Source of the DNA: a virus
Taxonomy: Duplodnaviria > Caudoviricetes
Length of the DNA stretch: 64,000 nucleotides
IMG/VR virus record: IMGVR_UViG_3300035182_002389
Span: 138,519 to 202,518 of that record
Reading direction: 5' to 3' (one strand)
How positions within the stretch are numbered: the first letter of the stretch is position 1; each line of letters opens with the position of its first letter. A program made the position numbers and the translations under genes. This document shows positions 3,740 to 60,624 of this stretch, piece by piece. The notes beneath the pieces are model-generated. The model saw nothing but the letters and a program-made list of their open reading frames with translations. It did not search any database and had not been told where the DNA came from.

Positions 3740-4561
3740 ATGCTGCCAATCCTTGCCGCTGTTGGAGCTTGGGAAGGGGCCTGGTGGCTCCGTCGCCGCA
3801 ACGCGCGCACGTCGATGTACGCGGAGGCCGCTGCCAAAGCGCGCCAGCTCGGCAAACCGTTGCTCGTCATCGGCGCGCCCGACGGGGGCGTCACGGCGGG
3901 CTACGGATGCGGAGACGTCACCATCGACCTGCAAGAGTCCTCGTGCCCCGTCAGCATCAAGGCCGACATCACGAAGACGCTCCCGTTCGACGACAACTCC
4001 GCGGTCGTGTTCGTGTCCTGCGTCCTCGAATACGTGAACGACGCCGAAGCGGCCATGCGCGAGCTTCGCCGTGTCGCAGGGCCGAACCTCTACATGGTTC
4101 GTGTCGAGCCGTGGACGCTCACGGCCTACCTCTACCCAGGCGCTCAGCGCACCTTCCCACGAAACGTCACCCCCGAGTCTGAGGCCGCCGTGCTCAAGCT
4201 CCGACCTTCCGGCCACGCTCTTCTCCGCCGCCACAACGAAACACTCGCGCCCTCGCGCGAAGGCCCGACTGCCATCGTGCGCACGGGCGCCGTCGCCGAC
4301 CCTTCCGCGCCCGCCCCCGGGTTCAACTGGATGCTCGCGCTCGGCGCCCTCGGAGCCATCGGCGTCGCGCTCTACATCGTGAAGAAGAGCGGCGAGAAGG
4401 TCGAGGTCACGCACCGCCAGGCTTCGTACGAAGACCTTTGGAGCGATGCGACGCGTGCGACGCGCGACCCGCAGCGCGCCAAGAAACAGAAATCTCGCCT
4501 CGAAGCGTGGGAAGCGCGCAAGGCGATGAGCGCCATCGCGCGCCGAGAGAACGAGTGGTGA
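3740..4561 (+). CDS. Class I SAM-dependent methyltransferase-like protein with N- and C-terminal hydrophobic segments
   Basis: LLVIGAPDGG, DITKTLPFDDNSAVVFVSCVLEYVNDAEAAMRELRRV resembles Methyltransf_11 core; TM WMLALGALGAIGVALYIVKK. Confidence 0.6.
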   Translation: MLPILAAVGAWEGAWWLRRRNARTSMYAEAAAKARQLGKPLLVIGAPDGGVTAGYGCGDVTIDLQESSCPVSIKADITKTLPFDDNSAVVFVSCVLEYVNDAEAAMRELRRVAGPNLYMVRVEPWTLTAYLYPGAQRTFPRNVTPESEAAVLKLRPSGHALLRRHNETLAPSREGPTAIVRTGAVADPSAPAPGFNWMLALGALGAIGVALYIVKKSGEKVEVTHRQASYEDLWSDATRATRDPQRAKKQKSRLEAWEARKAMSAIARRENEW

Positions 4562-4776
4562 TGTACGCTCGGCCCATCCTCGCGCGACGGAAGACGTCTG
4601 CCGCTGTTGGCGCCGCCGCCGACGACGGCGACAAGCTGTCGACGAACACGATCGCGGTTCTCGCCGTCGTATGTCCTCTCGCGGGCTACCTTGCCTATCG
4701 GGCCTTCGGCGAGCCGCCTACAGAATCCGCGCGATCCACATCCACGCCCGCCCACCGATTGAGCTGGAACTCATGA
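4561..4776 (+). CDS. Small membrane protein with RPxL...VGA leader
   Basis: TGATG coupling; MYARPILARRKTSAAVGA; TM IAVLAVVCPLAGYLAYR. Confidence 0.7.
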   Translation: MYARPILARRKTSAAVGAAADDGDKLSTNTIAVLAVVCPLAGYLAYRAFGEPPTESARSTSTPAHRLSWNS

Positions 4777-5015
4777 GCTTTCTTCGACCCTGCGGACGTT
4801 CTCTGTTGAGCGCGCCTACGTGGCCCACCGCACAAGCCCAGGTCGGCGGCACCGCCGAAACCGTCGCCGCCACCGCAACAGGTCTGCTCGTCGCAGGGTT
4901 CACCATCGCCCTTGGCGCCATGGCCGTCTACGATCGGGGTTTCACCAAGGGCTGCAACGACTGCCGAAACCAAGACCGAAAGTGGGCCCTCGAAGGCAAG
5001 TCGAAGTTCATCTGA
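4773..5015 (+). CDS. Small membrane protein with ..VGG leader and CxxC tail
   Basis: ATGA overlap; TM GLLVAGFTIALGAMAVY; KGCNDC. Confidence 0.65.
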   Translation: MSFLRPCGRSLLSAPTWPTAQAQVGGTAETVAATATGLLVAGFTIALGAMAVYDRGFTKGCNDCRNQDRKWALEGKSKFI

Positions 5016-5047
5016 CAAGACACATAACGAGCTGCTACTATCTTCCC

Positions 5048-5248
5048 ATGCCCCGACCGAACATCGTCCTCGAACCCGGCCACGTTTTTCTCTACAAAGC
5101 CCTCGGCAAGACGAACGAGACCATCAAGGTCTCCGCCGAAGACGCGAAGAAGGCGAACTTCATCAAGCTCTTCGACGTGCACGGGCGAACCTTCGCCGCG
5201 TTCTCCATCAAAGGGACGCTCTACGCGCAGCCCTACCGGCACGGATAG
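5048..5248 (+). CDS. Hypothetical protein (66 aa), probably leaderless
   Basis: TG-C-TACTAT 6 nt before ATG; coding-like composition. Confidence 0.6.
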   Translation: MPRPNIVLEPGHVFLYKALGKTNETIKVSAEDAKKANFIKLFDVHGRTFAAFSIKGTLYAQPYRHG

Positions 5249-5256
5249 GAGACGTC

Positions 5257-6099
5257 GTGGCCGAAACCCTCGCCGACACGCTTCGCCAGCTCGGCGCCCG
5301 CATGCTTCGGATTCTCACCGAAGAGAAGCATCGAAACCGATCGCCGCTCGAAGTCATTCGCGAAGAGCTGGCTCGGCAGGGGATCGACCCGAGCGGGGAG
5401 AAGCAGAACGCGATCACGCTCTTGTTCGCTGCTTTCTGGGCGATGAGCGGGTTCGCCTACGTCGCGGTCGGCCACACGCTCTCGGCCTCGCTCATGGCCA
5501 CCGATCCGCCCGAGGACGTCGAAGACCTCGACGTCCCATGGCCCGCGTTCATCGTCGGCGTGCCCAACGGCCTCATCCCGGGCGATCCTGCCGAGTTCAT
5601 CGGCATCGCTCGAAGATCCGATTCCAGCGACGCCATGGTTCTGATCGGATGGCGCGCCGGCAACCGCTACTCCGCATGGTTCGGAAGCATTCGCGAACTC
5701 TCAGAGAACGCCAGGCACGCGGGCGCCGACGTCATCCTGCTCTACCGTTTGCTCATCGGCGTCATTCTGGAGCTGGACGCCCCCAAGGCCTCGGGGACCT
5801 TGCAGTCGCCACCGAAGCAGCCGAAGACTCGTCGGCAAGGGGAGCTGCCTCGCGTGTGGGTCTACCGCCTCGTGCGCGACGTCAAGGTCGACTGCCGCCC
5901 GTGGGTGCAGGCGTTCGTGCAGAGCGGAGGCAAGTCGCCGTCCGTGCAGCGCCTCACGCGAGGGCACCAACGACGCGTCGCAGTCGGACCTGGGCGCGCA
6001 GGACGGCGTTGGCAGCGCATCGAGCCCTATTGGAAGGGAAGCGTCGACGCTCCGATTGCGACGAGTCGACACGTCCTTGCGACCAAGCGGCGTCCGTGA
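5257..6099 (+). CDS. Phage-type hypothetical protein with C-terminal RGHxRxxxxGPGR...IEPYWKG motif
   Basis: GTG start after AGGAG; motif recurrent in uncharacterised phage/MGE proteins (from memory). Confidence 0.65.
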   Translation: MAETLADTLRQLGARMLRILTEEKHRNRSPLEVIREELARQGIDPSGEKQNAITLLFAAFWAMSGFAYVAVGHTLSASLMATDPPEDVEDLDVPWPAFIVGVPNGLIPGDPAEFIGIARRSDSSDAMVLIGWRAGNRYSAWFGSIRELSENARHAGADVILLYRLLIGVILELDAPKASGTLQSPPKQPKTRRQGELPRVWVYRLVRDVKVDCRPWVQAFVQSGGKSPSVQRLTRGHQRRVAVGPGRAGRRWQRIEPYWKGSVDAPIATSRHVLATKRRP

Positions 6100-7943: not shown

Positions 7944-9098
7944 ATGAATCTCGACCAAAAGCTTCGCGTCCTCGTTGCTGGGGATTCCATCGTCGCGGGC
8001 TATCCGACGACCTCCGGGTTTCGCAAGAAGCTGCGCGAGTCGCTGCCGGAGAGCGTCGTCGAGTTCGTGGGGCCGAACGTCGACGCGGCCGGGCTCAGGC
8101 ACGGCGGCTATCATGGGCACCCATCAAAGAGCCTCGTCAAAAAGCTCCCAGAGCTGCTCGCTGATCGCCCCGACATCGCCATCATCATGGTGGGGGGCAA
8201 CGGCATCCCCGATACGACCCCCGAGGACGTGGGCCAAGAGGTTTCAGCCCTCGCCAAAGGTCTCGTCGACGGAGGCGTGCGCGTCGTCTACGTCTCGAAG
8301 ATTGCCGACGTCTCCCTCTTCAGCGAGCACGTGCGCGCCTACAACGAGCAGATCGCGCTTCAGTGCCTGCTGCCGAACGTGCACGTCATCGACATTGGCG
8401 GCGCAGTCGGTCCTGCCGATCGTGGATCGCCGTACTACGCTGACGACTGCCATCCGAACGAACTCGGATACGATCGCATGGCCGACGTTCCGCTCGCTCA
8501 GGTTTTCGGGCAAACCCCGCAGCCCATCACACGCGTTGGCGCGAGCGGTGAAAGCCCGACCTCACTCCTTCAGAGAGCCGACCAAGAACTGAAGTCTGCG
8601 TACCCCGAGATGACCTCGGAGATGCGCGCCGTCTTCATCAAGTCGTGCCACGAAATCACAGGCCTCGGCCAGTCGGGCGATTGGGCTCCGTTCGGTGTCG
8701 CGTCCAACAACGTCGGCGCCATCGTCTATCGCCCAGGCCACGACGCGACCTACTTCATGGGCCGCGACGGCGTGAAGTACGCGAAATACCCGACGCTCAA
8801 GGAAGGCCTTATCGCCGCTGTCGAAGCTTACGAGCACATCATCTCGCCCGACGTGCCCGAGCGACCGTCCTTTCGCCGTCCGGTGCTCACGCGCCCCTAC
8901 CCGGAAGCGACGGCGAACTTCAACCTGCACGGCGGCAAGCCCATCCTCCGCATCAGCGTTCGAGGTTCCTCGGACGCAGAGCCCACCGGCAACCCCTTCT
9001 CCTACGCCAACCTCGGCGTTCTCGTCATCGCAGGCGCCCTGTTCGCGGGCACGCTCGCGCTTCGACCCGGGCACAACGCGCCTCCGAGCCACCGATGA
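7944..9098 (+). CDS. SGNH/GDSL esterase fused to GH73-like glucosaminidase domain, C-terminal TM
   Basis: AGDS, VGGNG, DDCHP SGNH blocks; then HEITGLGQS..SNNVGAI..YAKYPTLKEG; TM LGVLVIAGALFAGTLALR. Confidence 0.7.
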   Translation: MNLDQKLRVLVAGDSIVAGYPTTSGFRKKLRESLPESVVEFVGPNVDAAGLRHGGYHGHPSKSLVKKLPELLADRPDIAIIMVGGNGIPDTTPEDVGQEVSALAKGLVDGGVRVVYVSKIADVSLFSEHVRAYNEQIALQCLLPNVHVIDIGGAVGPADRGSPYYADDCHPNELGYDRMADVPLAQVFGQTPQPITRVGASGESPTSLLQRADQELKSAYPEMTSEMRAVFIKSCHEITGLGQSGDWAPFGVASNNVGAIVYRPGHDATYFMGRDGVKYAKYPTLKEGLIAAVEAYEHIISPDVPERPSFRRPVLTRPYPEATANFNLHGGKPILRISVRGSSDAEPTGNPFSYANLGVLVIAGALFAGTLALRPGHNAPPSHR

Positions 9099-9501: not shown

Positions 9502-10281
9502 ATGCACGACCCGAAGTCCCTTCTGCACGACCCGAGCCTCCTCCGACTCGGCAAGAAGGCCGTCCGCCACGACGACCGCACCCTGCAACTCGTCAAGTAT
9601 CTCGGCGCGGCCCTTCCGCCGGCTCCCGCGAGCCTCGTCTGGTCGACGAAGACCGACAACAAGTGGCCGATGTTCCTCAACGACTCGCTCGGCGACTGCA
9701 CGTGCGCCGCGGCCGGCCACATGGAGCAGCTCTGGAGCGCCGCCGGGATCAAGAACGAGATCACTGTCGCCGACGCCGACGTGCTCGCGATGTACGAAGG
9801 CGCTGCCGGGTACAACCCGAAGGATCCGTCGACCGATCAGGGAGCCGTCGAGCTGGACGTCCTGAAGTTCTGGCAGAAGACCGGCCTCGCGGGGCGCAAG
9901 ATCGGCCCGTACGCCTCGGTTTCGGTGCAGAGCAAGACCATCACGAAGGACGGCATCTACCTCTTCGGCGGCATCTACACCGGGTTCGCGCTGCCCGTCA
10001 GCGCGCAGTCGCAGGCCGTGTGGGACGTTCCCGCCCGCGGCGCCGTCGGACGCGGCGCGCCCGGGAGCTGGGGCGGCCACGCCGTGCCCGTCATCGACTA
10101 CGACACGCGCGGCCTCACGTGCGTGACCTGGGGTACGCTGAAGCGCATGACCTGGGCCTTCTACCAGACCTACTGCGACGAGGCGTACGCCATCCTCAGC
10201 CCGGACTTCCTGTCCGCCGGCAAGTCCCCCGCCGGGTTCGACGCGGCGACGCTCGCGGCCGACCTCGCGAAGCTTCACTGA
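9502..10281 (+). CDS. Papain-like (C1-type) cysteine peptidase
   Basis: NDSLGDCTCAAAGH catalytic Cys region; SWGGHAVPVIDYD catalytic His; VTWG. Confidence 0.8.
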   Translation: MHDPKSLLHDPSLLRLGKKAVRHDDRTLQLVKYLGAALPPAPASLVWSTKTDNKWPMFLNDSLGDCTCAAAGHMEQLWSAAGIKNEITVADADVLAMYEGAAGYNPKDPSTDQGAVELDVLKFWQKTGLAGRKIGPYASVSVQSKTITKDGIYLFGGIYTGFALPVSAQSQAVWDVPARGAVGRGAPGSWGGHAVPVIDYDTRGLTCVTWGTLKRMTWAFYQTYCDEAYAILSPDFLSAGKSPAGFDAATLAADLAKLH

Positions 10282-12409: not shown

Positions 12410-12661
12410 ATGGCCTACCAGCGCCCCGCGCTCGCCGCTGCGTCTCGACACGTCGCCCCGCGCGCAGCCGTAGGAGGCATCGCCGATGCGGCGCCGCTCG
12501 GCGTTCCCGTTCCCATGTGGCTCATCGTCGCTGGCGGCGCCATCGGCGCCATCGGTGCAATCGAGCCTACCGCTGCGCCCTATCGAACGCCCGTTCTTCT
12601 CGCCGGTCTGCTCACTGCGTGCGCCGGCGCTGGCCTGACCGTCCTCAAGGGGTTCCAATGA
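12410..12661 (+). CDS. Small two-TM membrane protein with RPAL...VGG leader
   Basis: MAYQRPAL..AAVGG; two hydrophobic helices. Confidence 0.7.
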   Translation: MAYQRPALAAASRHVAPRAAVGGIADAAPLGVPVPMWLIVAGGAIGAIGAIEPTAAPYRTPVLLAGLLTACAGAGLTVLKGFQ

Positions 12662-12885
12662 ACTGCCGGCGTCCCGTGCTTGCCCGCATTTCTGGCGCTC
12701 CCGTCGTTCACACGGGCGGAACCTCGTCCGGCGTTCCTGCTACGGGACTCGCCGTCGCGGCAATGTTCGGAGGCATCAGCGTCCTCAGCGCTGCCAGCCT
12801 TCACGATCGGGCTACCGCCAACAGCCTCCTCTACCCGGTCGGCGGCGTTCTCGCTGTGGTCGGGGCCTTGAACCTGCTCTTCTGA
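12658..12885 (+). CDS. Small two-TM membrane protein with RPVL...TGG leader
   Basis: ATGA overlap; MNCRRPVL..HTGG; two helices. Confidence 0.7.
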   Translation: MNCRRPVLARISGAPVVHTGGTSSGVPATGLAVAAMFGGISVLSAASLHDRATANSLLYPVGGVLAVVGALNLLF

Positions 12886-12894
12886 GAGGCTTCC

Positions 12895-13134
12895 ATGAGC
12901 TACCAGCGACCCTCCCTCTGTTCTTCGCCTTCTCGGCCCGCCCTTGCGAGCGTTGGAGGTTCGGACACCTCTTCCGGCGCAAGCGAATGGATCCTCCCCG
13001 TACTGCTCGTCGGAGGGGGCGCTGCACTCTACATGGAGATGCGTCGAGAACGCGCAAAGGAAGAGGCGTCTGTTGTCCAGGGCAGGGCCTTCTACGCGAG
13101 TCGCCACCCTGAGAGGTCGCGCGCCGCGCGATAG
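12895..13134 (+). CDS. Small membrane protein, paralog of 13138
   Basis: RPSLC..SVGG; WILPVLLVGGGAALYMEMRRERAKEE..QGRAFY. Confidence 0.75.
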   Translation: MSYQRPSLCSSPSRPALASVGGSDTSSGASEWILPVLLVGGGAALYMEMRRERAKEEASVVQGRAFYASRHPERSRAAR

Positions 13135-13137
13135 ATC

Positions 13138-13686
13138 ATGGACTACCGTCGCCCCGCCCTCTGCTCTCGGCCCGATCTCGGGCCTGCGGCTACGCATGTC
13201 GGCGCAGACGTTCCTGCGACCTCAAGCCCGACGGGGTGGATACTGCCGGTCTTGATTCTTGGCGGAGGCGCCGCGCTCTACTTCGAGATGAAGAAGGAGC
13301 GCGCGAAAGAGGATTCGCAGACGGCGCAAGGGCGCGCCTTCTACGAGAAGCGTCGCTCTGAGAAAGAGCGCGAACGCGCCCTCCGAGAAGAGCGTTTTGG
13401 CCCCACCACTCCAAGGACCGGAGCTGCCTTTCACGGACCGAAGGCGCCATCCATCGCCGATCGTCCGATGACAACTGAGGAGGCCGCCAGGGTTCAGCGC
13501 GTGCTCCACCCTGTTCCGCCGCTTCGCCCGGACGCCTTGCCCGAGGTTCAACACGTACCCCGTGAGGCTCGGGAACGGGCCGGGTTCAAACCCCTGCACA
13601 TCGAGAAGATGCGCAAAGAGCTGGAGGCCCTCCGGCGCGAGTTCGGCCCTTCCACGGAAGGTCCGAAAACCGAGCGCAGGCCGTGA
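13138..13686 (+). CDS. Membrane protein, paralog of 12895 with C-terminal extension
   Basis: RPALC..HVGA; WILPVLILGGGAALYFEMKKERAKED..QGRAFY. Confidence 0.75.
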   Translation: MDYRRPALCSRPDLGPAATHVGADVPATSSPTGWILPVLILGGGAALYFEMKKERAKEDSQTAQGRAFYEKRRSEKERERALREERFGPTTPRTGAAFHGPKAPSIADRPMTTEEAARVQRVLHPVPPLRPDALPEVQHVPREARERAGFKPLHIEKMRKELEALRREFGPSTEGPKTERRP

Positions 13687-13711
13687 TTGTTTGCGCGTAG
13701 GAGCAGGGCCC

Positions 13712-13726
13712 GACTTACGCTAAGCT
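13712..13726. promoter_or_regulatory. Variant operator GACTT-ACGCT-AAGCT whose right half doubles as a -10 box (TAAGCT)
   Basis: One mismatch to consensus; 7 nt before ATG 13734. Confidence 0.6.
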
Positions 13727-13733
13727 GACTCGC

Positions 13734-14315
13734 ATGGCGTCTGTCCGCGGCCTGCTCGCACACAAGCCCCAAGCCCACGTTCCGCCGGCCAACGTCGGCG
13801 CACCTCTCCCGGCCGGACCTGCCCCCGCATCGAGCGGACCGAACCTGACGACTCTCCTCGTCATCGGCGTCGTCGGCGCAGGCGCGTACGTCTACTGGAA
13901 GAAAAAGAAGGAAGGCGAGAAGGCGGAAGCTAGCTATCGCAACCGCCAACCCGTCCAATACGACGCCTCCGTCGTTCGGACTCCGCACAGGCAGATGTCC
14001 GCCGTCGCCGGAACGAGCAAGAGCCCGGTTGGGTTCTTGGCACCGCCCTCGTCTGTCTCCGGGTCGACAGAGAGGGCCTCTCCGCGCCATACGGAGGGAG
14101 GCGTCATCTCTCGCGAGGCGTACTCCTACCCCGACGTGCCGCGTTTCCCCGACGCCCAAGCTTCGTCGTTCCGTTGGCGCCCACCCGTCGACCAGCCGCC
14201 CTCTACGGTTCCGGGAACTGAGCGAGACATGCCGCCCTTCACCGTCGTCTCGGGGGACGCTCCCTTCGCACCCGAGTCCATGAGCGAGTCTCTCTCCAAC
14301 CGCCGCAGCTTCTGA
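13734..14315 (+). CDS. Membrane protein with RGLL...VGA leader and Pro/Ser-rich tail
   Basis: TM LLVIGVVGAGAYVYWKKKK. Confidence 0.75.
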   Translation: MASVRGLLAHKPQAHVPPANVGAPLPAGPAPASSGPNLTTLLVIGVVGAGAYVYWKKKKEGEKAEASYRNRQPVQYDASVVRTPHRQMSAVAGTSKSPVGFLAPPSSVSGSTERASPRHTEGGVISREAYSYPDVPRFPDAQASSFRWRPPVDQPPSTVPGTERDMPPFTVVSGDAPFAPESMSESLSNRRSF

Positions 14316-25757: not shown

Positions 25758-25961
25758 ATGTCCAAGGTCACCTCGTACTACGCGCAGCGTCCCGCCCTCA
25801 CCCACCTCGTGAGGACCGGGGCGCTCGCCGATTTGGGCGATCAGGACCCTCTTGGGATTCCTCGCAGGTCCAACGGCGACGCGGTCGGACTGCTCGTCCT
25901 CACCACGGCGACCTCCATCGCGGGAGCTTTGCTCCTCTACCAGCTCACCCGCCACGACTGA
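25758..25961 (+). CDS. Small membrane protein with RPAL...TGA leader
   Basis: GAGGAGG RBS; TM GLLVLTTATSIAGALLLYQL. Confidence 0.75.
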   Translation: MSKVTSYYAQRPALTHLVRTGALADLGDQDPLGIPRRSNGDAVGLLVLTTATSIAGALLLYQLTRHD

Positions 25962-41145: not shown

Positions 41146-41448
41146 ATGACCTGGCTCTACGGCAAGACGGGCACGTCCTTCTTCGACGTCTGGTCGATCG
41201 TCCACTTCTGCTTTTGGGTATTCGCAGGCTCCGTCGCTTGGGGTGCGAAGGTGCAGAAGTGGTGGGCGCTCGCTGCGGGCGTCCTCTTCGCGCTCGCGTG
41301 GGAGTGCTTCGAGCGATACGCGGAAAAGCGCTGGCCGCAATATTGGCTCCACCCCGAGAGCTGGTGGAACTCGTGGATCAGCGACATCCTCATGTGCGTC
41401 CTCGGCGTCCTCTTCATCTGGGCGCTCCTAGACAGGTACGCGCGGTGA
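41146..41448 (+). CDS. Multi-pass membrane protein with H..G / WExxE / ND-like conserved polar residues
   Basis: SIVHFCFW..G, LAWECFE, NSWISDI; three hydrophobic helices. Confidence 0.7.
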   Translation: MTWLYGKTGTSFFDVWSIVHFCFWVFAGSVAWGAKVQKWWALAAGVLFALAWECFERYAEKRWPQYWLHPESWWNSWISDILMCVLGVLFIWALLDRYAR

Positions 41449-42053
41449 CCGTCGAGGCGTGGGCGGACATTGCGGGAAAACCGAACGACGCCGTCTACGT
41501 CGGCTTTTCCACAGTCCCAAGCAACCCTATCTCCAGGATCGTTCGGGCCGTCACTGGATCGGACGCGAGCCACGTCTGGCTCGTGGTAAGCCTCTTCGGC
41601 GTCAGGTGCGTCGTTGAAGCCGGAGATTTCGGATTCTTTCCCTCGATGACCTTCGATCGTTTCAGGAAAAAGAATCAGGTCGTCGACTTTTTCCCAATCC
41701 GGCACGACCTCCGCGCCGGCCTTCATTGGGCGGCAAACCACTTCGGAGAGAAGTACGACTACGGCGGCCTAATCGGCATGGCGCCCGTCATGCTCGGACG
41801 CTTCTTTCACCGACGATGGCGCAACCCGTTCGGCTCGCGTAATGCCCTGTTCTGCTCCGAAGCCATCTCAGAAATCTTCAAGCGATCCAGGGTGCCCGGC
41901 TTCCAGAAGTTTGTTCCAGAGGAAACCACCCCAGAACAGATTCGGACCGTGCTCCGCAACGCCGAGTTTCAGAGGCTCAGCGAAAGCGTTCGCCAGACTC
42001 GCGACAAGTCGAAGGTTTTGGTAGCATCACGAGCTAAGGAGGACCGCACATGA
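41445..42053 (+). CDS. Permuted papain-like amidase (YiiX/YebB-type NlpC/P60)
   Basis: GTGA overlap; ASHVW (His), EKYDY, LFCSEAI (Cys) in permuted order. Confidence 0.8.
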   Translation: MTVEAWADIAGKPNDAVYVGFSTVPSNPISRIVRAVTGSDASHVWLVVSLFGVRCVVEAGDFGFFPSMTFDRFRKKNQVVDFFPIRHDLRAGLHWAANHFGEKYDYGGLIGMAPVMLGRFFHRRWRNPFGSRNALFCSEAISEIFKRSRVPGFQKFVPEETTPEQIRTVLRNAEFQRLSESVRQTRDKSKVLVASRAKEDRT

Positions 42054-45526: not shown

Positions 45527-48109
45527 ATGCTCATTCGCGTTCGCCACATCCCCATCACGCCGTACGCCATGCTTCCCGCAGGAGCTGCCGTCGGGGTTTA
45601 CATCCCCGGCGTCAGCGAAATCGGTCACGCGCTGGAGAAGGGGTACAACGCTGCAAAAAGCGCACTCAATAAAATCGGCGACGCATTCGAGAGCGCCGGC
45701 AAATGGATCGGGGAGAACGTTGGGGCCGGAGGCAAGTGGCTCTGGGAACACGACCCGATCATGCAGCTCGGGTACAAGATCGCGAAGGGCGAAAACGTCT
45801 GGCAAGCGCTCAAGGAGGTCGGCGCCATCATCGGCGAAGACATCCGCATCTTCGGGCCCTACCTCGCCTACATCCCCGGCGTCGGAACGGCGGCGGCGAT
45901 GGCCATCGCGGCAGGCCTTGCGCTCGCCAACGGCAAGAGCCTCACCGAGATCGCCATCGAGACCATGCGCGGAGCCATTCCGCCAGGGCCGTTCCAGACC
46001 GCATTCGATACCGCCAACGCGCTCCTCCACGGCAAGAGCATCACGGACGCCGCACTCGAAGCGCTCCACAAGGAGTATCCGGCGGCCTACGACGTCGCAA
46101 AAGCGGCCATCGACGTCGCCAAGGGCGGCAGCATCACCGAAGCTGCGCTCTCGGCCCTCCGCGACCAGTTGCCGCCCGAAGCGCAAGGGGCCCTGGACGC
46201 AGGCATCGCCATCGCGAAGGGCAAGCGCGTCCAAGACGCTCTGCTCGACGGCATCCGCACGGCCCTGCCGCCCGACTATCAGGAAGCCTTCGACGTTGCC
46301 CGCGACGTCGCCAACGGCAAGAACATCGTCGACGTCGCGATCGCCGAAGCCAAGAGGCAACTGCCTCCCGAAGCGCAGGCGTACGCGGACGTCGCCATCG
46401 CGCTGATCAAGGGCGCGAAGGTTTCCGACGTTCTCATTCAGGCCGCGCGCGCCGCCATTCCCGCCGAATACCTCAAGTATTTCGACATGGCGATGAATCT
46501 CAAGAGCGTCGACGCATCCGCCGTCATCGCCGCTGTCAAGGCGCAAGTTCCTGCGAACACGCCCATCGATCAGGTCTACGCCATCGCGAAGAACTTGCAG
46601 ACGACGGGCGCTGCAACCGGAGGCGTGCGCGCGGTTGTTCGCGGAAACTCCATCGCGTTCGAGGCCAGACCACACATCGCGCTCGGAGGCCTCTTTCCGA
46701 CCCGTCCGCCGCAGTACCGACAAGTGTCCGTCGGCGCAGGGGCCATCGTCAACGCTGCCCTCAACGTCGCGATCGAAGAGCTGCGCCAACGGCTCCCCAG
46801 CGAACCTGCCGCGCAGGCTGCGTTCCAAGCCGCCGTCGATCTCGTCAAGGGAAAGAGCCTCGAAGACGTCGCCATCGAGGTCTCCAAGAGCTTCGTCCCG
46901 CAAGAATACCAAGACGCATACGGCAAGGCTGCAAAGGTCGCCGACGACGTCATTCACGGTGCCAACCTCGGCGACGTTGGCATGGACGCAATCCGCGCCA
47001 ACCTCCCCGATGGAGCTGCCGGATACGCCGATCTCGCACTTCGCTTCGTTCAAGGCGAAAAATCAACCGATGCGGCGCTGGCTGCCGCTCGCCTGCTCCT
47101 CCCCGCAAACGCGCAAGGCGCATTCGATCTCGCCATGAGCCTCGCCAGCCAGAGCGCGAGCTTCCGGCAAGCGGCCATCGACGCCGTCAAGGCTGCCATG
47201 ACCCCAGGCCAAGACCTCAACACGGCCTTCGACCAGGCCGTCTCGCTCGCGAAGGACCAGATCCCACAAAGCTTCATCGACGATCTCAAAACGAAGGCGG
47301 CCATCGGAGACGAACTCAAGGCCGCTTTCGATCAGGTCATCGAACTTGCCAAGGGAAAGGCCATTCAGAGCATCGCGACCGAGATCGTGAAGGGATACAT
47401 CCCCGACGATTTCAAGGCCTCATACCAAAAGGTCGCGGATTTTGCGAACCAAGCGCCCACGAGCGACGCTGCGCTCAACGTCTTTCGACAGAAAGTGTCT
47501 CCAGCCGGACAACACGTCGTCGACAGCGCCACCGCTTTGTTCAAGGGAGCGGCGCCAGAGAACATCGCCAACGACGCCGTGGTCCAGGATGTCGTTGCAC
47601 GGGTCGTCGCCTACCAGAAGAGCGCCGCTGCCTACCAAAAGGTCGCCGCACCCAGAACGGCCGTTCCTGCCCCGATCCTCGCCCGCGTGACAAGGCTTCG
47701 GTCCAACATGCTCGCCTCCGTCAACGGAACGTCTGATCCGGCGTCCGACCCTCTGCGGTCCCCAGACTTGATCGTCGTCGTTGCACCCGGCGAAGAAGAC
47801 TGGACCGCATACAACCAGGCTCTCGAAGACATTGCTCGACGACGGGCCGCGCTCGGCCAGTCCAACCCGTACCTCGGATCGCCCATCGATCCAGATTTTC
47901 AGAAAGCGATCGACGCCAAAACTGCGCAATACCAGGCGGAGATGGCTCCCAAGATCAACGCGCGCCGTTTTCTTCGTCTCGAAGGCGCAGTCGAAGAATC
48001 GGCCGAGGGCGCAACTAAGGGCAAGAGCACGATCAAAACCGTCGCCCTCGTCGCCGGCGGAGGAGCCCTCGCCTACTATTTGATCAGGCGCCGCAGGCAC
48101 GCTCCCTAG
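45527..48109 (+). CDS. 860-aa alpha-helical repeat protein with C-terminal membrane anchor
   Basis: ~15 units of ~32-33 aa (GKSITDAALEAL..LPP..QxAFDxAxxxxK); TM VALVAGGGALAYYLIRRRR. Confidence 0.8.
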   Translation: MLIRVRHIPITPYAMLPAGAAVGVYIPGVSEIGHALEKGYNAAKSALNKIGDAFESAGKWIGENVGAGGKWLWEHDPIMQLGYKIAKGENVWQALKEVGAIIGEDIRIFGPYLAYIPGVGTAAAMAIAAGLALANGKSLTEIAIETMRGAIPPGPFQTAFDTANALLHGKSITDAALEALHKEYPAAYDVAKAAIDVAKGGSITEAALSALRDQLPPEAQGALDAGIAIAKGKRVQDALLDGIRTALPPDYQEAFDVARDVANGKNIVDVAIAEAKRQLPPEAQAYADVAIALIKGAKVSDVLIQAARAAIPAEYLKYFDMAMNLKSVDASAVIAAVKAQVPANTPIDQVYAIAKNLQTTGAATGGVRAVVRGNSIAFEARPHIALGGLFPTRPPQYRQVSVGAGAIVNAALNVAIEELRQRLPSEPAAQAAFQAAVDLVKGKSLEDVAIEVSKSFVPQEYQDAYGKAAKVADDVIHGANLGDVGMDAIRANLPDGAAGYADLALRFVQGEKSTDAALAAARLLLPANAQGAFDLAMSLASQSASFRQAAIDAVKAAMTPGQDLNTAFDQAVSLAKDQIPQSFIDDLKTKAAIGDELKAAFDQVIELAKGKAIQSIATEIVKGYIPDDFKASYQKVADFANQAPTSDAALNVFRQKVSPAGQHVVDSATALFKGAAPENIANDAVVQDVVARVVAYQKSAAAYQKVAAPRTAVPAPILARVTRLRSNMLASVNGTSDPASDPLRSPDLIVVVAPGEEDWTAYNQALEDIARRRAALGQSNPYLGSPIDPDFQKAIDAKTAQYQAEMAPKINARRFLRLEGAVEESAEGATKGKSTIKTVALVAGGGALAYYLIRRRRHAP

Positions 48110-48191: not shown

Positions 48192-48548
48192 ATGCCCCCG
48201 CGCACCAGCCCAAGCATCGATCCGAAGAGCATCCCCTACGACGTCTACGCTCTCGCGTATGCGCTGGCCGACGCTCTGATCCCCAAGTTCACGTGGGTGC
48301 TCACGACCATCGACCAGAACCAGCAGATCACCGTGAGCACGGAGCTGCTCGACGACGTCAACCTGTTCGTCGAATGCGGATCGGCCGGCATCGTCGAGTT
48401 TCAGCTCGAAAAGGACGGGGGCGCCAAGTACACCCAACAAAGCGTCGTTGCGGGGCAGAGAATCTTCGGGAGGTTCAAGAGAATCGGCCCGAACACCAAC
48501 GTCTACCCGCTCATCGGCTACGGCAACTCGTCGCAGCGGTCGCGCTGA
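48192..48548 (+). CDS. Hypothetical protein (118 aa)
   Basis: GGGAG RBS. Confidence 0.7.
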   Translation: MPPRTSPSIDPKSIPYDVYALAYALADALIPKFTWVLTTIDQNQQITVSTELLDDVNLFVECGSAGIVEFQLEKDGGAKYTQQSVVAGQRIFGRFKRIGPNTNVYPLIGYGNSSQRSR

Positions 48549-48558
48549 AGGATTTCGC

Positions 48559-48756
48559 ATGAGCCCTCGAAACCACATCCTCCCCGTTCTTCCGCTTGCC
48601 CTGTCGGTTCTCACCGCCGGAGGCGTTCTCAGCTCCTACGTCGGGTGTTCCGGGGCCAACGGCGGCAAGGATGCGCGGGCCGAAAGCGCCACGGCACAAC
48701 CGTCCGCTCCGACTTCCAAGATCCTCACGGCGCCGAGCGCGTCGACCTCCAAGTAG
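48559..48756 (+). CDS. Small putative lipoprotein
   Basis: Hydrophobic signal LPVLPLALSVLTAGGVLSSYVG|C, Ser/Ala-rich tail. Confidence 0.45.
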   Translation: MSPRNHILPVLPLALSVLTAGGVLSSYVGCSGANGGKDARAESATAQPSAPTSKILTAPSASTSK

Positions 48757-48807
48757 TTCGCGAGCCTCGGCCCGCCCCAACGCCCCCACATCCACGAGGA
48801 GATCCAC

Positions 48808-50256: not shown

Positions 50257-50543
50257 TCTGCGGCGGTTGCGGGCGCGAGTACCGAGGCGTGTCGAGCCGT
50301 AGCGGCACGCCGCGGTGCCCGTACTGCGACAAGCCGTACGGACAAGCGGCAACCGGCGCGACGAGGGTCGCCCCCGTCATCACCGCAGATCAGCGCGTCG
50401 TATTCCTGCCGAACCCGCTGAAGGACCGCCCGTTCTACCTCAAGCGCATCTACGACGCACCCACCAGCGACTCACCGATGGGTCCGATCGATCAGCAGAC
50501 CACCGCGCAGATTCGCGCGAGGATCATCGGACAGAAAGGGTAG
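50253..50543 (+). CDS. Zn-ribbon protein sharing its finger with 48808
   Basis: ATGA overlap; CGGCGREYRGVSSRSGTPRCPYC. Confidence 0.7.
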   Translation: MICGGCGREYRGVSSRSGTPRCPYCDKPYGQAATGATRVAPVITADQRVVFLPNPLKDRPFYLKRIYDAPTSDSPMGPIDQQTTAQIRARIIGQKG

Positions 50544-50545
50544 CC

Positions 50546-50893
50546 GTGTCGCCCTACGCCATGTCTCCGTACGCCTACGTCATCGAATACGGGCTCGCGC
50601 TCGGCACCATCACGCCCAGCGAAGTCCGCGACATCGGGCTCGACCCGAGAGACTTCTGGCCCGACTTCTCGCAAGTCGTTCCGAAGCCCGGCGTTCGGCA
50701 GACCAGCTACAAGGGCTCCAAGGTCACGACTCCGATGAAGCCGCCCTACCCCGCGAACGATCCCGTCCTGCAAGCCGTCGCGTACGGCTTGCAGAACGGA
50801 ATCATCGCGATCAAGCAGGTCGACTGGCTCGGGCTTCACCCTGCCTACTTGGTTCCGTCGAACGTTCACTTCCCGAAGCTGCGGACCGAGTAG
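50546..50893 (+). CDS. Hypothetical protein with two ~28-aa internal repeats
   Basis: YGLALGTITPSEVRDIGLDP / YGLQNGIIAIKQVDWLGLHP. Confidence 0.65.
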   Translation: MSPYAMSPYAYVIEYGLALGTITPSEVRDIGLDPRDFWPDFSQVVPKPGVRQTSYKGSKVTTPMKPPYPANDPVLQAVAYGLQNGIIAIKQVDWLGLHPAYLVPSNVHFPKLRTE

Positions 50894-50969
50894 GCCCGTC
50901 AGTCCTCCGCGCTCGTCGCTCTTGTGCGGCGACGACCAGAAGAAGATCATCGCCTTCACAGGAGACATC

Positions 50970-52019
50970 ATGGACTCGAAGACTCCCTACATCATCGGCG
51001 GCCTGGCCGTGCTCGGCGTCGGCGCCTACTTCCTGCTCCGCAAGACCCCGGTCACCGCTGCGGCGACTCCGGGAACTACCGCGCTGCCCGCCGGTGGAAC
51101 TCCCGTCGCCGGAACGCCCGCCACGACCGTCCCGCAGGCCATGCCTGCCGGGTGGCCGACCAGCATTCCGTGGCCGCCGCCCGGCCTGCCCGCCGGCACG
51201 GCGCTGCCGACCGCCAAGCCTGCATGGTGGCCCGCCGGCATCACCTACCCGCCGACCGTTCCGACGAACGTCTCGAACGTCCCGAGCAGCCTGCCCGGCA
51301 CCACGACGTCTCCCCAGCCGCCGGCCGAAGCCAAGTTCAACCGCCTCGGCGCGACCCCCGATCAGGAGGCGCAGGCCAAGCAGAACATGTGGCACGTGCT
51401 TCAGATGGTCGCGCTTGCCGACGCAACCGCGAATCCTGCCACGCTCGACGCGACGCACACCGTCGGCCTCGGTTCGAGCGACCCGAGCGGCACCTCCGCA
51501 GCGCAGAGCATCGCAATGCTCAACGACGCTCTCAACGGCGGCGGACAGTACGTCCTCATCAGCGTTCCCCCGACCGACGGATCGGGCAACGCCATGCCTC
51601 CGACCTTCCTGTTCACGAACCTCGAAGGCGCCATGTCTTCCGGTCTCGGCGCGGGCGTCGGCGGCCCGTGGACGCTCTTCCTCACCCCGAACGAGTGGCG
51701 CACCGTCGAAGCCGCCGTCGTCGCACAGGGAGCGCCTCCCGCCGTTCCGACTCTTCCGCAGAGCGCTCCGACGGGGTGGCCGGCGGGCGTCGCATGGCCC
51801 CCGACCGGATGGACCCCGGGGCAGCCCGTTCCCTCGACGGCTCCCTCGGGCTGGCCGGCCAGCATCCCCTGGCCTCCGACCTCCGCGAGCATCCCGGGAT
51901 TCACCCCGCCCGCCGGAACGCCCCAGATCCCGCCCAGCATCCCGACCGATCCGACGCAGTACGCCGCCTACATCGCCCAGCTCAAGGCCATGGGCCTCCC
52001 GGTCCCTCCCGGCGCCTGA
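50970..52019 (+). CDS. N-anchored membrane protein with GWP..WPP repeats flanking a globular domain
   Basis: AGGAG RBS; YIIGGLAVLGVGAYFLLRK; QYVLIS; WTLFLTPNEWRTV. Confidence 0.8.
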   Translation: MDSKTPYIIGGLAVLGVGAYFLLRKTPVTAAATPGTTALPAGGTPVAGTPATTVPQAMPAGWPTSIPWPPPGLPAGTALPTAKPAWWPAGITYPPTVPTNVSNVPSSLPGTTTSPQPPAEAKFNRLGATPDQEAQAKQNMWHVLQMVALADATANPATLDATHTVGLGSSDPSGTSAAQSIAMLNDALNGGGQYVLISVPPTDGSGNAMPPTFLFTNLEGAMSSGLGAGVGGPWTLFLTPNEWRTVEAAVVAQGAPPAVPTLPQSAPTGWPAGVAWPPTGWTPGQPVPSTAPSGWPASIPWPPTSASIPGFTPPAGTPQIPPSIPTDPTQYAAYIAQLKAMGLPVPPGA

Positions 52020-52950: not shown

Positions 52951-53376
52951 ATGCCCTGCCCCAACCCGAGCTGCCCGTACGCAAACGACCCAAGCCACTT
53001 CTGCCCATGCTCCTCGGCTGCTGTCGGTAGGGGCGGCGGGGGAGGGGGCGGAGGACATGGAGGCGGCGGAGGAGGCCATGGAGGCGGCGGAGGCGGCGGA
53101 GGCCACGGCGGCGGAGGGCATGGCGGAGGTGGAGGCCGCGGGTGGGGCGGCGGAGGGTGGGGAAACTACGGGCTGAGGCCCAGGCCGCACGGGTACTACG
53201 GCTGGTACGCAAACGGATACTGGTGGCCGGGCTGGTGGGACTACCCGAACGAGCTGAACGATACGAGCAGCCTCCTCGCACTCGCCAGAGCCTTGCAGAA
53301 CGGCGCCATCACAGGCGCGCAGGTGCGAGCCATGGGGATCAGCCCCAACGCCCTCATCGCCATCCTCAGCCCGTAG
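52951..53376 (+). CDS. Cys-rich leader, Gly/His-rich and Trp/Tyr-rich protein
   Basis: MPCPNPSC..AAVG, GHGGGGG repeats, YYGWYANGYWWPGWW, C-terminal ALQNGAITGAQVRAMGISP. Confidence 0.7.
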   Translation: MPCPNPSCPYANDPSHFCPCSSAAVGRGGGGGGGGHGGGGGGHGGGGGGGGHGGGGHGGGGGRGWGGGGWGNYGLRPRPHGYYGWYANGYWWPGWWDYPNELNDTSSLLALARALQNGAITGAQVRAMGISPNALIAILSP

Positions 53377-57153: not shown

Positions 57154-58281
57154 TCAACGAATCGACGACGAAGGACGTGAAAGGAAATACGCCACGGCCG
57201 CACCGGCGAGCATTGCTCCGCCGGCCATGAGGACCTTCGTCGACGTCGATGTCGAGGCTCCACCGCCGGCATCCATGACGAAAGGTTCGGGGTCAGGGCC
57301 CTGCACGTAGTCTGTGCGACCTTCGACGCCCGGCGGGTTTGACGCCGGATCGGGGATCGCCACGCCGTCGGAACCCGTCACGTAGCTCACTCTCTTCGCT
57401 CCGCTCGTCCCCGACATGGGAGGGGGCATCAGCGTCTTCTTCGACCCGTTGTTGAGCACCGGCAGAGCGTTCGTTCCCGCGTTGGGGAACCGAGGGTTGA
57501 ACGGCCCGTCGTCCGAAACGAGCACGTGCAGCTTCGGATGCAAGCACACCTCGTCGAACGAAAACGGAACGCCGTTGACCGACACCTGCCAATAGACGAG
57601 GTCGCAACCGTGCGAGTAGTCCTCGTAACCAGCTTCGTGAAATGACCAGTCCCACGGCTGGATCTGCGAGCCGTTCGGCCAAAACCAGCCACCGAACGCC
57701 ATGTTCTTGCCGTCCAGGTTCGGCCTCGTGATGTACGCCTTCTTCGTTCGCGTGAACGCGCTGTAGTTCGCGCCGAAGATGACGCCGGCCTTCGCGAGAG
57801 CTTCGTTGACCCGCTCGTTCTCTTTCGCAATGACCGACGTTGCGAGCCCAGGATGGCAAATGCCGAGAGGATTCTTCTCGGTCTTCTCACAGGGCCTGGA
57901 GAGGGCCTGCGGATCGATTTTGAACGACGTCGACTGCCACGTGTTCTTCACGATCTTCTTCGACGGAATGTAGAACTTCGAGGTTCGGTCCGTTGGATCT
58001 GAAGCGCTCACGAGCATTCGAGCGTCGCAAAACGATTGCAGACTTGGCTGTATGAGCGGCCATCGAACGAAGTCCTCGTTCGTGCCGATCGACAAGTAGT
58101 CGGGCGGCGTTAGGTACGTCAGCTCGTAGTCACCTCCGTCGATGACCGCAGACGTTCGGCACGTCTGAAGATGCTCCATGAACTCCGGCGTATTGCCGGC
58201 GAGCATCGTGGAGAGCGCAAGCGCATCGCGCTTCGGATCGCTCATGTCCCAGACAAGCTTCAGGAACTCGGAGCCCTTCAT
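57154..58281 (-). CDS. Membrane-anchored HxxxYxDYSHGC protein, paralog of 21859
   Basis: MLAGNTPE, YLSIGTNED, KKAYIT, HEAGYEDYSHGCD, VCLHPKLHVLVSD; TM LMAGGAMLAGAAVAYFLSR; TG-G-TAGGCT 7 nt upstream. Confidence 0.8.
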   Translation of the reverse strand: MKGSEFLKLVWDMSDPKRDALALSTMLAGNTPEFMEHLQTCRTSAVIDGGDYELTYLTPPDYLSIGTNEDFVRWPLIQPSLQSFCDARMLVSASDPTDRTSKFYIPSKKIVKNTWQSTSFKIDPQALSRPCEKTEKNPLGICHPGLATSVIAKENERVNEALAKAGVIFGANYSAFTRTKKAYITRPNLDGKNMAFGGWFWPNGSQIQPWDWSFHEAGYEDYSHGCDLVYWQVSVNGVPFSFDEVCLHPKLHVLVSDDGPFNPRFPNAGTNALPVLNNGSKKTLMPPPMSGTSGAKRVSYVTGSDGVAIPDPASNPPGVEGRTDYVQGPDPEPFVMDAGGGASTSTSTKVLMAGGAMLAGAAVAYFLSRPSSSIR

Positions 58282-59619: not shown

Positions 59620-59622
59620 ACG

Positions 59623-59952
59623 TCAACCGCACTTCAGAATGATGGGGGTCGCTCGCATGATACGCGCAGCGGCCTTCTTCATGTCTTCGCGCAGGAACGG
59701 AGGCCGCGTCGGCATCGAAACGCCCTTGGCTTCCGCTTCTTCTCGCCAGGTCTCACGCATCCGAATCGCCGCAAGATTCACCACGGTATCCGCAATCTCG
59801 TCGCGGATCTGATTGTGGGTCCAACCCTCGCGCTGGCCCTTCTTGATCAGCTCGATCGCTTCCGATGTGAGCGCCTTGCTCTTGAGGATGGCCCGAGCAA
59901 GGTATCGCCCCGGAGGGACCGTCGTTTTTCCTGTCTGGGGATCGCGCGGCAT
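59623..59952 (-). CDS. Hypothetical protein (109 aa), probably leaderless
   Basis: TATTCT 6 nt before ATG on - strand. Confidence 0.65.
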   Translation of the reverse strand: MPRDPQTGKTTVPPGRYLARAILKSKALTSEAIELIKKGQREGWTHNQIRDEIADTVVNLAAIRMRETWREEAEAKGVSMPTRPPFLREDMKKAAARIMRATPIILKCG

Positions 59953-60005
59953 GGCTGAAGAATACACGAGGCCGACGAGCTACGCGAGCGTAAGCCGAAG
60001 ACGAC

Positions 60006-60020
60006 GACTTTTCATAAGCC
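60006..60020. promoter_or_regulatory. Palindromic operator GACTT-TTCAT-AAGCC with embedded -35 (TTTTCA) 17 bp from TACACT
   Basis: TACACT at 60032-60037; upstream of 60070. Confidence 0.8.
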
Positions 60021-60069
60021 ACAGACGCGCGTACACTTGCCGGCAGACGTCTACACCGAGGAACAGCTC

Positions 60070-60624
60070 ATGCCCTTCTGCCCATCTTGCGGTAAGAATC
60101 ACGCCGCCGTTGGCGCTCTCGTCGGGGCGAACCCGTACCGCTCCAACGTGCAGAAGCTCCACACCGTCATGCAGCAGGTCATGCACCGAGCCAGCATCGG
60201 CGATCCCGGGACTCTCAGCGTCACACTGGCAAAGGCTCTCCCCCTCGCCAACGGCGGTCGCGGCAAGACGCAGAACGTGCAAGCGCTCGGCCCGCTCAAC
60301 CTCGTCGGGCTCCACATTGGAACCGCTGAAGGCGTGGCTAGTGGGCTCAAGGTCACGAGGGTCCAGATCGGCCGACACGACATCCTTCCAATGGATCAGT
60401 CGGGCCGACTCATCGACCCGAATCCTGCCAAGAAGAACGCCTTCGGCAACCAACCGATCATCGCCGGATGGGACATTGGCCAGACGATCCCGCTCGACCC
60501 TCAAGGGCTGATGTGGAAGGCCTCCACGCCCAGCGACTACGCCTACCAAGATCAGGTGCTCTGGATCACGTTCTGGAATCGGTCAGGACAAACGGTCACG
60601 CCAAACGGCATCGCCATCTACTGA
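60070..60624 (+). CDS. CxxC/VGA-leader protein with all-beta domain; candidate single-jelly-roll capsid-type protein
   Basis: MPFCPSC..AAVGALVGA; alternating beta-strand pattern (LSVTL, LNLVGLHI, LKVTRVQIG, LWITFWN); fold unverified. Confidence 0.4.
   Translation: MPFCPSCGKNHAAVGALVGANPYRSNVQKLHTVMQQVMHRASIGDPGTLSVTLAKALPLANGGRGKTQNVQALGPLNLVGLHIGTAEGVASGLKVTRVQIGRHDILPMDQSGRLIDPNPAKKNAFGNQPIIAGWDIGQTIPLDPQGLMWKASTPSDYAYQDQVLWITFWNRSGQTVTPNGIAIY

Follow-up and report, generated by a model that had tools for sequence, protein, structure and literature searches.

Thirteen small membrane proteins encoded in a 202,518-bp virus record of the IMG/VR database share a basic N-terminal leader that is built of two short sequence boxes. 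We describe this leader here, starting from the last 64 kb of the record (positions 138519-202518), a stretch of 64,000 nucleotides to which we refer as the window. The leader is a lineage-specific, portable and selected N-terminal tag, as is apparent from its motif, its enrichment, its position and the conservation of its architecture in a related genome. Going by its sequence features, our preferred but tentative reading, to which we give somewhat less than an even chance, is that it would combine a class-specific address box with cleavage at a shared second box. An initial annotation of the window had noticed a recurrent leader on many small membrane proteins and had proposed a role in maturation by a protease or in targeting; the leader itself is borne out as a selected feature, with its Gly-containing second box at the border between basic and acidic or neutral sequence.

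From the initiator Met to the Gly of the second box, the leader comprises 14-27 residues, carries a net charge of +1 to +4 and is almost devoid of acidic residues. Its first element, box 1, reads (Y)-x-R-P-x-L-[A/S/C], with a Cys beside the box in five members and with Arg and Leu as the sole residues that are invariant across all members. A variable spacer of 4-17 residues separates it from box 2, A-x-[VT]-G-[AG], behind which come a linker of 6-40 residues rich in Ala, Ser, Thr, Pro and Asp, one or two transmembrane (TM) helices and, in some members, a Lys/Arg-rich segment immediately after the TM helix. Summed over the eight members with a single TM helix, the charge amounts to +19 in the leader, -9 in the linker and +5 behind the TM helix, so that the charge switches abruptly at box 2. 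According to the positive-inside rule, the N-terminus would be cytoplasmic while the leader is present, and the chain remaining after its removal would resemble the N-out/C-in topology of coat-protein-like proteins. The members are listed below, together with a lipase-like protein that carries a related module; positions are those of the window, or of the whole record where they are marked as genome positions.

4561..4776, plus strand: leader member of 71 residues; M-Y-A-R-P-I-L-A-R-R-K-T-S-A-A-V-G, acidic linker, one TM helix
4773..5015, plus strand: leader member of 80 residues; starts M-S-F-L-R-P-C-G, degenerate box 1 L-R-P-C-G, box 2 A-Q-V-G-G, one TM helix
7470..7727, plus strand: leader member of 85 residues; S-P-R-P-I-L-S-R-R-A-I-T-G-A, Ala/Pro-rich linker, TM helix
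7731..7931, plus strand: leader member of 66 residues with a GTG start; G-R-A-L-L-S-R-R-A-T-V-G-A; in-frame stop one codon upstream
12410..12661, plus strand: leader member of 83 residues; A-Y-Q-R-P-A-L ... A-A-V-G-G, two TM helices
12658..12885, plus strand: leader member of 75 residues; N-C-R-R-P-V-L ... V-H-T-G-G, two TM helices; start overlaps the stop of the 12410 gene
12895..13134, plus strand: leader member of 79 residues; S-Y-Q-R-P-S-L-C ... A-S-V-G-G, one TM helix
13138..13686, plus strand: leader member of 182 residues; D-Y-R-R-P-A-L-C ... T-H-V-G-A, one TM helix, long charged C-terminal tail
13734..14315, plus strand: leader member of 193 residues; loose box 1 V-R-G-L-L, box 2 A-N-V-G-A, one TM helix followed by K-K-K-K, long tail
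25758..25961, plus strand: leader member of 67 residues; box 1 moved to residue 11 (Y-Y-A-Q-R-P-A-L), box 2 V-R-T-G-A, one TM helix
28099..28287, plus strand: member of 62 residues with box 1 only; D-R-P-I-L-A-R-L, no [VT]G[AG], one TM helix; just upstream of a KaiC/AAA_25-type ATPase gene
Genome 38337-38657, minus strand: leader member outside the window
Genome 45915-46271, minus strand: leader member outside the window
7944..9098, plus strand: GDSL/SGNH lipase-like protein, the C-terminal 80 residues of which (from about 8853) resemble an internal leader-TM module

All start codons in the six frames of the whole genome were screened with a strict pattern, namely RP.L within the first 16 residues and [VT]G[AG] 3-22 residues beyond it; this retrieved nine small TM proteins and, besides these, only two unrelated open reading frames (ORFs). 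Looser inspection added four members, namely 4773-5015, 28099-28287 and the two genes outside the window. The exact RPxL reported near the N-termini of ORFs 4561, 7470, 12410, 12658, 12895, 13138 and 25758 was confirmed, as were the variants RALL and RGLL in 7731 and 13734, and in all nine of these ORFs [VT]G[AG] comes 4-17 residues after box 1, with a TM helix behind it. The assigned start codons are reliable: a purine-rich, Shine-Dalgarno-like sequence precedes most of them, two gene pairs are joined by an ATGA overlap of start and stop (among them the 4773 start with the 4561 stop), and, in the set of genes examined for this, in-frame stops lie one to four codons upstream in the leader genes 7731, 12895, 13138 and 28099 as well as in ORF 52951. 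The internal module of the lipase-like protein (8853-9098) consists of R-R-P-V-L, S-V-R-G-S-S-D-A-E-P and a TM helix, and looks like an anchor of the lipase.

The composite motif is strongly enriched. As a null model, residues 2-50 of all 2,448 ATG ORFs (at least 45 residues, six frames) were shuffled with their own composition kept in 200 trials, which yielded 0.58 +/- 0.77 occurrences (maximum 4), whereas nine are observed, about 11 standard deviations above. When shuffling was restricted to the residues lying between box 1 and the TM helix of each member, [VT]G[AG] was expected in 2.06 of the 13 members but is found in 12 (P = 8e-11, an optimistic value given that the motif was defined post hoc). 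Each half alone stays at the background of the six-frame space: RP.L occurs at 20 N-termini against 15.9 expected, and [VT]G[AG] at residues 10-40 occurs 127 times against 124 expected. Across the proteome, [VT]G[AG] is found 184 times in 276 proteins, 1.4 times the number given by composition, with similar tripeptides at 0.8-1.26 times. In six-frame space, the enrichment over shuffled proteins, for which the initial annotation had suggested a test, belongs to the composite motif and not to either half; the objection raised there, that VG and TG might simply follow the guanine-cytosine (GC) content, fails for the core family in the composite and box 2 tests, but holds for the peripheral examples. 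The strings placed at domain junctions in 7944 (TRVGAS), 26160 (ALAVGAGKK) and 45527 (VSVGAG) do exist, at the count expected for the length of these proteins. Among the leaders said to be closed by VG, the one of 60070 belongs to a six-member class described below, while those of 52951 (AAVGR) and of the 45527 N-terminus (AAVGV) are loose matches only.

52951..53376, plus strand: doubtful relative; Cys-rich N-terminus ending A-A-V-G-R, then a Gly/His-rich run; not alignable with the six-member class
45527..48109, plus strand: protein of 860 residues, membership uncertain; basic N-terminal stretch ending A-A-V-G-V, internal VG[AG] at background rate

The architecture of the leader is retained in a relative. 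The soil contig L011 (160.8 kb, 64% GC) shows synteny with the window; it encodes a protease 66% identical to that of ORF 9502, as well as a GDSL lipase, 19343-type and 24825-type proteins and Lys-rich proteins. At least five of its small proteins (1162, 1492, 1755, 9563 and 14151) start with M-x-H-x-x-L-[AS]-x-L-R, followed by A/H-[VT]-G, and their TM helix comes soon after the leader in four cases and near the C-terminus in 14151; close to the N-termini of two further ORFs, 2828 and 6071, there is a [VT]-G-A site. When 18 leaders are aligned jointly, Leu is invariant. In two more distant relatives, L032 and L033, the small TM genes at the position of 28099 read H-R-P-L-V and K-N-P-L-V, respectively, and other proteins have short leaders ending in A-S-V-G-A or A-A-T-G-G. 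The architecture is thus kept while box 1 drifts, which fits a short linear motif that co-evolves with a reader. The small proteins of L011, L032 and L033 gave no significant tblastn match to the present genome (best E = 0.02, for L011), so that orthology of individual members cannot be established, and a homologue search with the 13138 protein found only itself and nothing outside its own genome. The lipase of L011 is anchored by an N-terminal TM helix, unlike the one encoded at 7944 with its C-terminal module.

Box 2 recurs at the end of a second, unrelated N-terminal module. Six larger, non-membrane proteins start with M-x-x-C-P-x-C-G-x-x-H-A-x-[VT]-G-[AG], and box 2 is present in all six.

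60070..60624, plus strand: CPxCG-class member, not a membrane protein; M-P-F-C-P-S-C-G-K-N-H-A-A-V-G-A
Genome 47628-48452, 48649-49131, 49154-50464 and 50541-51281, minus strand: four tandem genes of CPxCG-class members
Genome 122628-123197, minus strand: CPxCG-class member

Five of these proteins have a C-terminal domain in common, one of them with a LysM-like segment, and the sixth is glutaredoxin-like, where the LysM-like and glutaredoxin-like assignments refer to Pfam matches just under the cut-offs. Among 1.84 billion representative proteins, a profile search turned up nine relatives only; in the three examined that are neither the genome's own proteins nor near-identical copies (P0137, P0138 and P0140), the first ~30 residues are almost unchanged, with differing bodies in two of them. 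Since the six copies are homologous to each other, this reuse of box 2 adds a single independent case rather than six, but the fact that box 2 ends two unrelated N-terminal modules is the best argument for its being a functional element in its own right. A degenerate DNA pattern of C-P-x-C-G-x-x-H-A-x-[VT]-G-[AG], run against IMG/VR, gave three chance matches in non-coding-looking frames. At 49600-50300, within ORF 48808-50256 and the next ORF, there are internal C-P-x-C-G-like knuckles with T-G-A or L-G-G behind them (e.g. R-C-P-Y-C-D-K-P-Y-G-Q-A-A-T-G-A), which may be degenerate copies of this second leader.

The initial annotation had proposed two enzymes of the window, encoded at 9502 and 41445, for processing the leaders.

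9502..10281, plus strand: stand-alone papain-fold, C1-like cysteine protease without signal peptide or TM helix; candidate leader peptidase
41445..42053, plus strand: probable permuted papain-like amidase of the YiiX/C92, NlpC/P60 type (Atlas lead)

That 9502 encodes a cysteine peptidase was correct. The protein has no Pfam match and is a member of phrog_19005, but its AlphaFold model (predicted local distance difference test score, pLDDT, of 90.4) shows a papain fold, for which Foldseek returned matches between E = 3e-9 and 1e-5, including xylellain (3ois, E = 3e-9) as well as procathepsins and papain (E of about 1e-6). Cys66 and His193 are invariant in 39 homologues, and the nearest Atlas neighbours include clusters annotated as C1/C39_2. 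As modelled, it is a cytoplasmic, stand-alone cysteine protease of clan CA, similar to family C1. Papain-family enzymes select their substrates mainly via a hydrophobic P2 residue, and V/T-G would fit such a site, given this preference of the C1 S2 pocket.

The link of 9502 to the leaders is positional: its gene is embedded in the cluster of leader genes here and immediately follows one such gene in L011, which is suggestive and no more. The family has 3,397 homologues at E < 1e-5, with occurrences next to the terminase/portal genes of a tailed prophage, on a bacterial chromosome and on two further phage contigs, and there are no leader-type proteins within 10 kb of these. A predicted complex of 9502 with a 40-residue leader (of the member ending at genome position 46271) received a score of 0.00, which, with controls not run, speaks neither for nor against binding. 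As to other peptidases, six-frame hidden Markov model (HMM) searches of the genome with PF00770 and PF02902 (C5, C48) were negative, C39 (PF03412) and A24 (PF01478) peptidases were not found in the virus genome, and it encodes no ATP-binding cassette (ABC) exporter. The 41445 protein, being probably an amidase, is a weak candidate for an endoprotease. Neither 9502 nor a polymerase fragment gave any match when scanned against IMG/VR.

We infer targeting, cleavage, the identity of a protease and membership in the particle along the following lines. Box 1 is most likely an address element, which would mark fast-evolving small membrane proteins for the virus assembly site or the particle membrane. 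Box 2 is most likely a processing site for the removal of the 14-27-residue leader, with V/T in P2, G in P1 and A/G in P1', or with the cut one residue later. A processing site fits box 2 because of the charge boundary, the small residues and the reuse on the second module; by also ending the zinc-knuckle-like module C-P-x-C-G-x-x-H on six soluble proteins, box 2 suggests one processing step for two cargo classes. Owing to the place of its gene inside the leader cluster, 9502 would be the best available candidate enzyme for the cut. Removal of the leader could flip or release the acidic N-terminal tails of the membrane proteins and thereby arm the particle membrane. The gene neighbourhood suggests that the leader proteins are particle components: the surroundings of the leader genes are rich in wall-degrading enzymes and in fibre-like or all-beta proteins, which we count in favour of this reading.

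Several observations weigh against it. The 28099 protein has box 1 without box 2, and the lipase-like protein 7944 carries the module internally, which implies that the module can in some cases do without a free N-terminus. Homologues of the CPxCG class remain conserved for ~15 residues past box 2, which would suit a folded or docking module equally well. The 9502 family is widespread without leaders nearby, so that the enzyme is not a dedicated partner of the leader. The premise of a particle membrane rests on the type of virion, and here the model of the capsid candidate has a pLDDT of 41 and the searches with HMMs for packaging and capsid proteins were negative. Lastly, an invariant codon in box 1, described below, hints at an additional nucleic-acid or decoding constraint that the leader model does not cover.

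The first three of these observations would be explained if the leader stayed on the protein as an uncleaved docking tag, i.e. a cytoplasm-facing short linear motif that tethers its carrier to a capsid, scaffold or assembly factor, with box 2 as a flexible Gly hinge. We regard this as doubtful, although the spacer of variable length between the boxes is in line with it, the positional counterpart of 28099 in L032 keeps R-P-L-V, and the vaccinia A17 protein offers a precedent as a tether for D13 (PMC10013923). However, a hinge does not need a specific A-x-[VT]-G-[AG], which is nevertheless present in all members but one, the identical pentapeptide closes an unrelated leader class, and the charge flips exactly at box 2, as is typical for the boundary between a propeptide and a mature chain.

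A plainer explanation would be a family of paralogues, generated by tandem duplication of one membrane-protein gene, with a generic topogenic role for the leader and no dedicated recognition. The leader genes do occur in tandem runs (4561/4773, 7470/7731 and 12410-14315), the 12895 and 13138 proteins are 56% identical, and the invariant codon could reflect shared descent or gene conversion. Yet these two proteins are the sole pair that can be aligned along their length, and the remaining members share no more than two residues of box 1 (R and L), box 2 and a TM helix; with only two short boxes surviving in diverged proteins, simple common descent is insufficient. That the boxes persist amid divergence beyond alignment points to specific selection, as a positive-inside role needs charge only. 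Moreover, the third base of the Arg codon is free beside the invariant Pro codon, which speaks against recent copying, and box 2 is found on a non-homologous module. We therefore consider this explanation improbable.

Very little probability, in our view, falls to a signal for the host machinery, in which signal peptidase I, Tat (twin-arginine translocation) or a prepilin peptidase would read the leader. It is true that box 2, with [VT] at -3 and [AG] at -1, conforms to the von Heijne rule and that 4561, 7470 and 7731 contain [AS]-R-R. Against a Sec signal, however, the leaders have no hydrophobic core or h-region; polar residues, R and H among them, occur all the way to box 2. With regard to the Tat consensus ([ST]-R-R-x-F-L-K), R-R is found in 3 of the 13 members and is absent from the other 10, none has F-L-K, and there is again no h-region. 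In prepilins (class III signals), the hydrophobic segment follows directly after the Gly, whereas the TM helix lies 6-40 residues behind it here; the cognate A24 peptidase (PF01478) is not encoded by the virus. Lastly, the CPxCG-class proteins have no TM helix at all.

Just as unlikely is a nucleic-acid signal, i.e. an RNA or DNA element after the start codon of the form CGN CCC NNN CTY, of which the peptide motif would be a by-product. Its basis is a striking codon constraint: the Pro of box 1 is encoded by CCC in all 11 members that have a Pro, as compared to 35% genome-wide and 28-42% in matched contexts (P <= 7e-5), and the Leu by CTC or CTT in 12 of 12, while the third base of the Arg codon varies. 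One conceivable function, masking of the ribosome-binding site by the C/U-rich box 1, was rejected, as the predicted pairing of box 1 with the Shine-Dalgarno region does not exceed that of 99 control genes (3.50 versus 3.47, P = 0.40). Furthermore, L011 retains the peptide architecture without any Pro codon, and box 2 shows an ordinary variety of codons. Chance or composition, by which R, P, L, V, G and A would be common enough at 65% GC to produce the motif, accounts for the single boxes and isolated internal sites at background rate, but has practically no probability left for the leaders and is excluded for the core family by the composite and box 2 tests and by the true hits being small TM proteins throughout.

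Among known systems, two are functionally closest to a leader that is addressed and cleaved, although neither is homologous, as protease clan, site and cargo differ: the capsid-targeting sequence (CTS) of T4 with the propeptides of giant phages, and the A17/D13/I7 system of vaccinia. The gp21 prohead protease removes the CTS of T4 internal proteins, as the prohead proteases of phiKZ and SPN3US do with the propeptides of these giant phages (PMC5694885, PMC10052503, PMC9026906). These systems resemble the present one in that several unrelated proteins share a short N-terminal leader, which would combine an address with a cleavage motif at its end. In contrast, their sites end in Glu (L/I-x-E; S/A/G-x-E), their enzymes are serine proteases of the assemblin-like S77/S80 type, and their cargo consists of soluble head-internal proteins of tailed phages, whereas we find a Gly-based site, a papain-like enzyme as the sole protease candidate, mainly membrane proteins as cargo and, in the searches for the HK97 capsid and Terminase_6C, no tailed-phage head genes.

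Gly-containing sites are used by the proteases of several eukaryotic viruses, namely A-G-X by poxvirus I7, G-G-X by pS273R of African swine fever virus (ASFV), and (M/I/L)-x-G-G-X or (M/I/L)-x-G-X-G by that of adenovirus. The comparison with these viruses had already been made in the initial annotation, but it is an analogy only: a viral cysteine protease cuts a small Gly-containing site common to several virion proteins there, and the likeness here lies in the sequence motif. These proteases belong to clan CE (C57, C63 and C5), from which C5 and C48 gave no match in the genome, while 9502 has the papain fold of clan CA; the residue before Gly is Ala or Gly there and V/T here, the hosts here are bacteria, and box 1 is without a counterpart in those systems. 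Vaccinia adds the parallel that the N-terminal tail of a viral membrane protein is trimmed during maturation: the tail of A17 tethers the D13 scaffold (PMC10013923), and it is processed by I7 (Ansarah-Sobrinho and Moss 2004, as cited in PMC10013923).

Double-glycine leaders, which are found on bacteriocins and quorum peptides, are similar in having 15-30 residues, an end in G-G or G-A and a processing peptidase of clan CA, the C39 domain of ABC exporters. However, their character is acidic or amphipathic, positions -4, -7 and -12 are hydrophobic and -8 is acidic (L-S-x-x-E-L-x-x-I-x-G-G), and their cargo consists of secreted peptides, whereas the leaders here are basic, have V/T at -3 and no L-x-x-E-L-x-x-I, and precede membrane proteins, with neither C39 nor an ABC exporter in the genome. 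We rejected such a signal, given the different leader pattern, the lack of PF03412 and the fact that the closest solved structures to 9502 are C1 enzymes. Sec and class III signals resemble the leaders in their basic N-terminus and in having small residues where the cut would fall, but not in the missing hydrophobic core and the distant TM helix.

The genome that carries the leaders has a GC content of 65% and is 94% complete by the CheckV estimate. Most of its genes are on the plus strand, and most of its large proteins have no match in Pfam or PHROGs. The assignable genes of the window include the following.

7944: GDSL/SGNH lipase
14333: SLT transglycosylase
17637: GH25 muramidase
28319: KaiC/AAA_25-type ATPase
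31026: collagen/LamG fibre-like protein
40719: NUDIX enzyme

Judging from the wall-degrading enzymes, the host would be a bacterium that has peptidoglycan. Terminase_6C, Pox_A32, the HK97 capsid and FtsK gave no match in HMM searches of the genome, and no head genes were found among 30 large proteins compared with Pfam and PHROGs, in which no search was aimed at S77/S78. Two tandem, 500-residue, all-beta paralogues with 54% identity and about 2 x 8 predicted strands are encoded at 36781-38280 and 38311-39819; their relatives are confined to short IMG/VR contigs, and they may be capsid or fibre proteins. The contigs found via the 36781 protein are short and without leader genes. Its AlphaFold model, calculated from eight sequences, is all-beta and, at a pLDDT of 41, unusable for a fold search, and profile searches of the 36781 and 29550 alignments against PDB sequences found nothing.

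Further gene families are shared with the relatives. Three Lys/Ala-rich, histone-H1-like proteins are encoded at 26082-28028, directly 5' of the KaiC/AAA_25-type ATPase gene (28319-29446); this order is kept in L011, L032 and L033 and may represent a unit for condensing and packaging the genome. One paralogue family (16098, 32667, genome 42514 and L033:2878) starts with M-S-H-x-P-V, followed by a conserved A-A-L ... G-x-F-x-D-G-D. A duplicated family of ~370 residues, with a conserved N-terminus G-S-E-F-L-K ... M-L-x-G-N-x-P-x-F and a C-terminal TM helix, is encoded at 21859-22974 and 57154-58281 (minus strand) and has two copies per relative (L011:17088 and 18283; L032:9613 and 11276). Finally, a separate set of N-terminal TM anchors, approximately M-x-x-K-x-L-P-x-I-L-G-G-x-A-V-L-x-x-x-x-x-L-x-K-K, occurs on varied bodies, and this anchor type is conserved in L011.

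Window 203, 6134, 15459, 17160, 20767 and 50922; genome 114240, 134187 and 135885: members of the TM-anchor set
L011:583, 4142, 6596, 7120 and 13658: members of the TM-anchor set in the relative

How small membrane proteins are selected into the particles of membrane-containing or complex bacterial viruses is largely unknown, and we know of no description of a sorting or processing signal that the small membrane proteins of such viruses have in common. As a bolder and rather speculative proposal, which we hold to be possible but unlikely, the leaders may belong to an unrecognised lineage of 160-200 kb soil bacterial viruses that use a two-box code on ~6% of their proteome (at least 13 membrane and six soluble proteins): address boxes, either RPxL or a zinc knuckle, would deliver these proteins to the particle, where a papain-fold protease would trim them at A-x-[VT]-G-[AG] and thus arm the particle membrane, as a counterpart of poxvirus and adenovirus maturation with an unrelated protease. 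If true, this would point to a possible convergence with the maturation of eukaryotic large DNA viruses, and the leader code would predict the membrane proteomes of such particles from metagenomic sequence. It would also provide a defined pair of peptide and protease that is open to work in E. coli without culturing the virus, and a portable tag for loading foreign proteins into particles. If, on the other hand, the tag remains uncleaved, it would constitute a new short linear docking motif and point to a receptor among the structural proteins.

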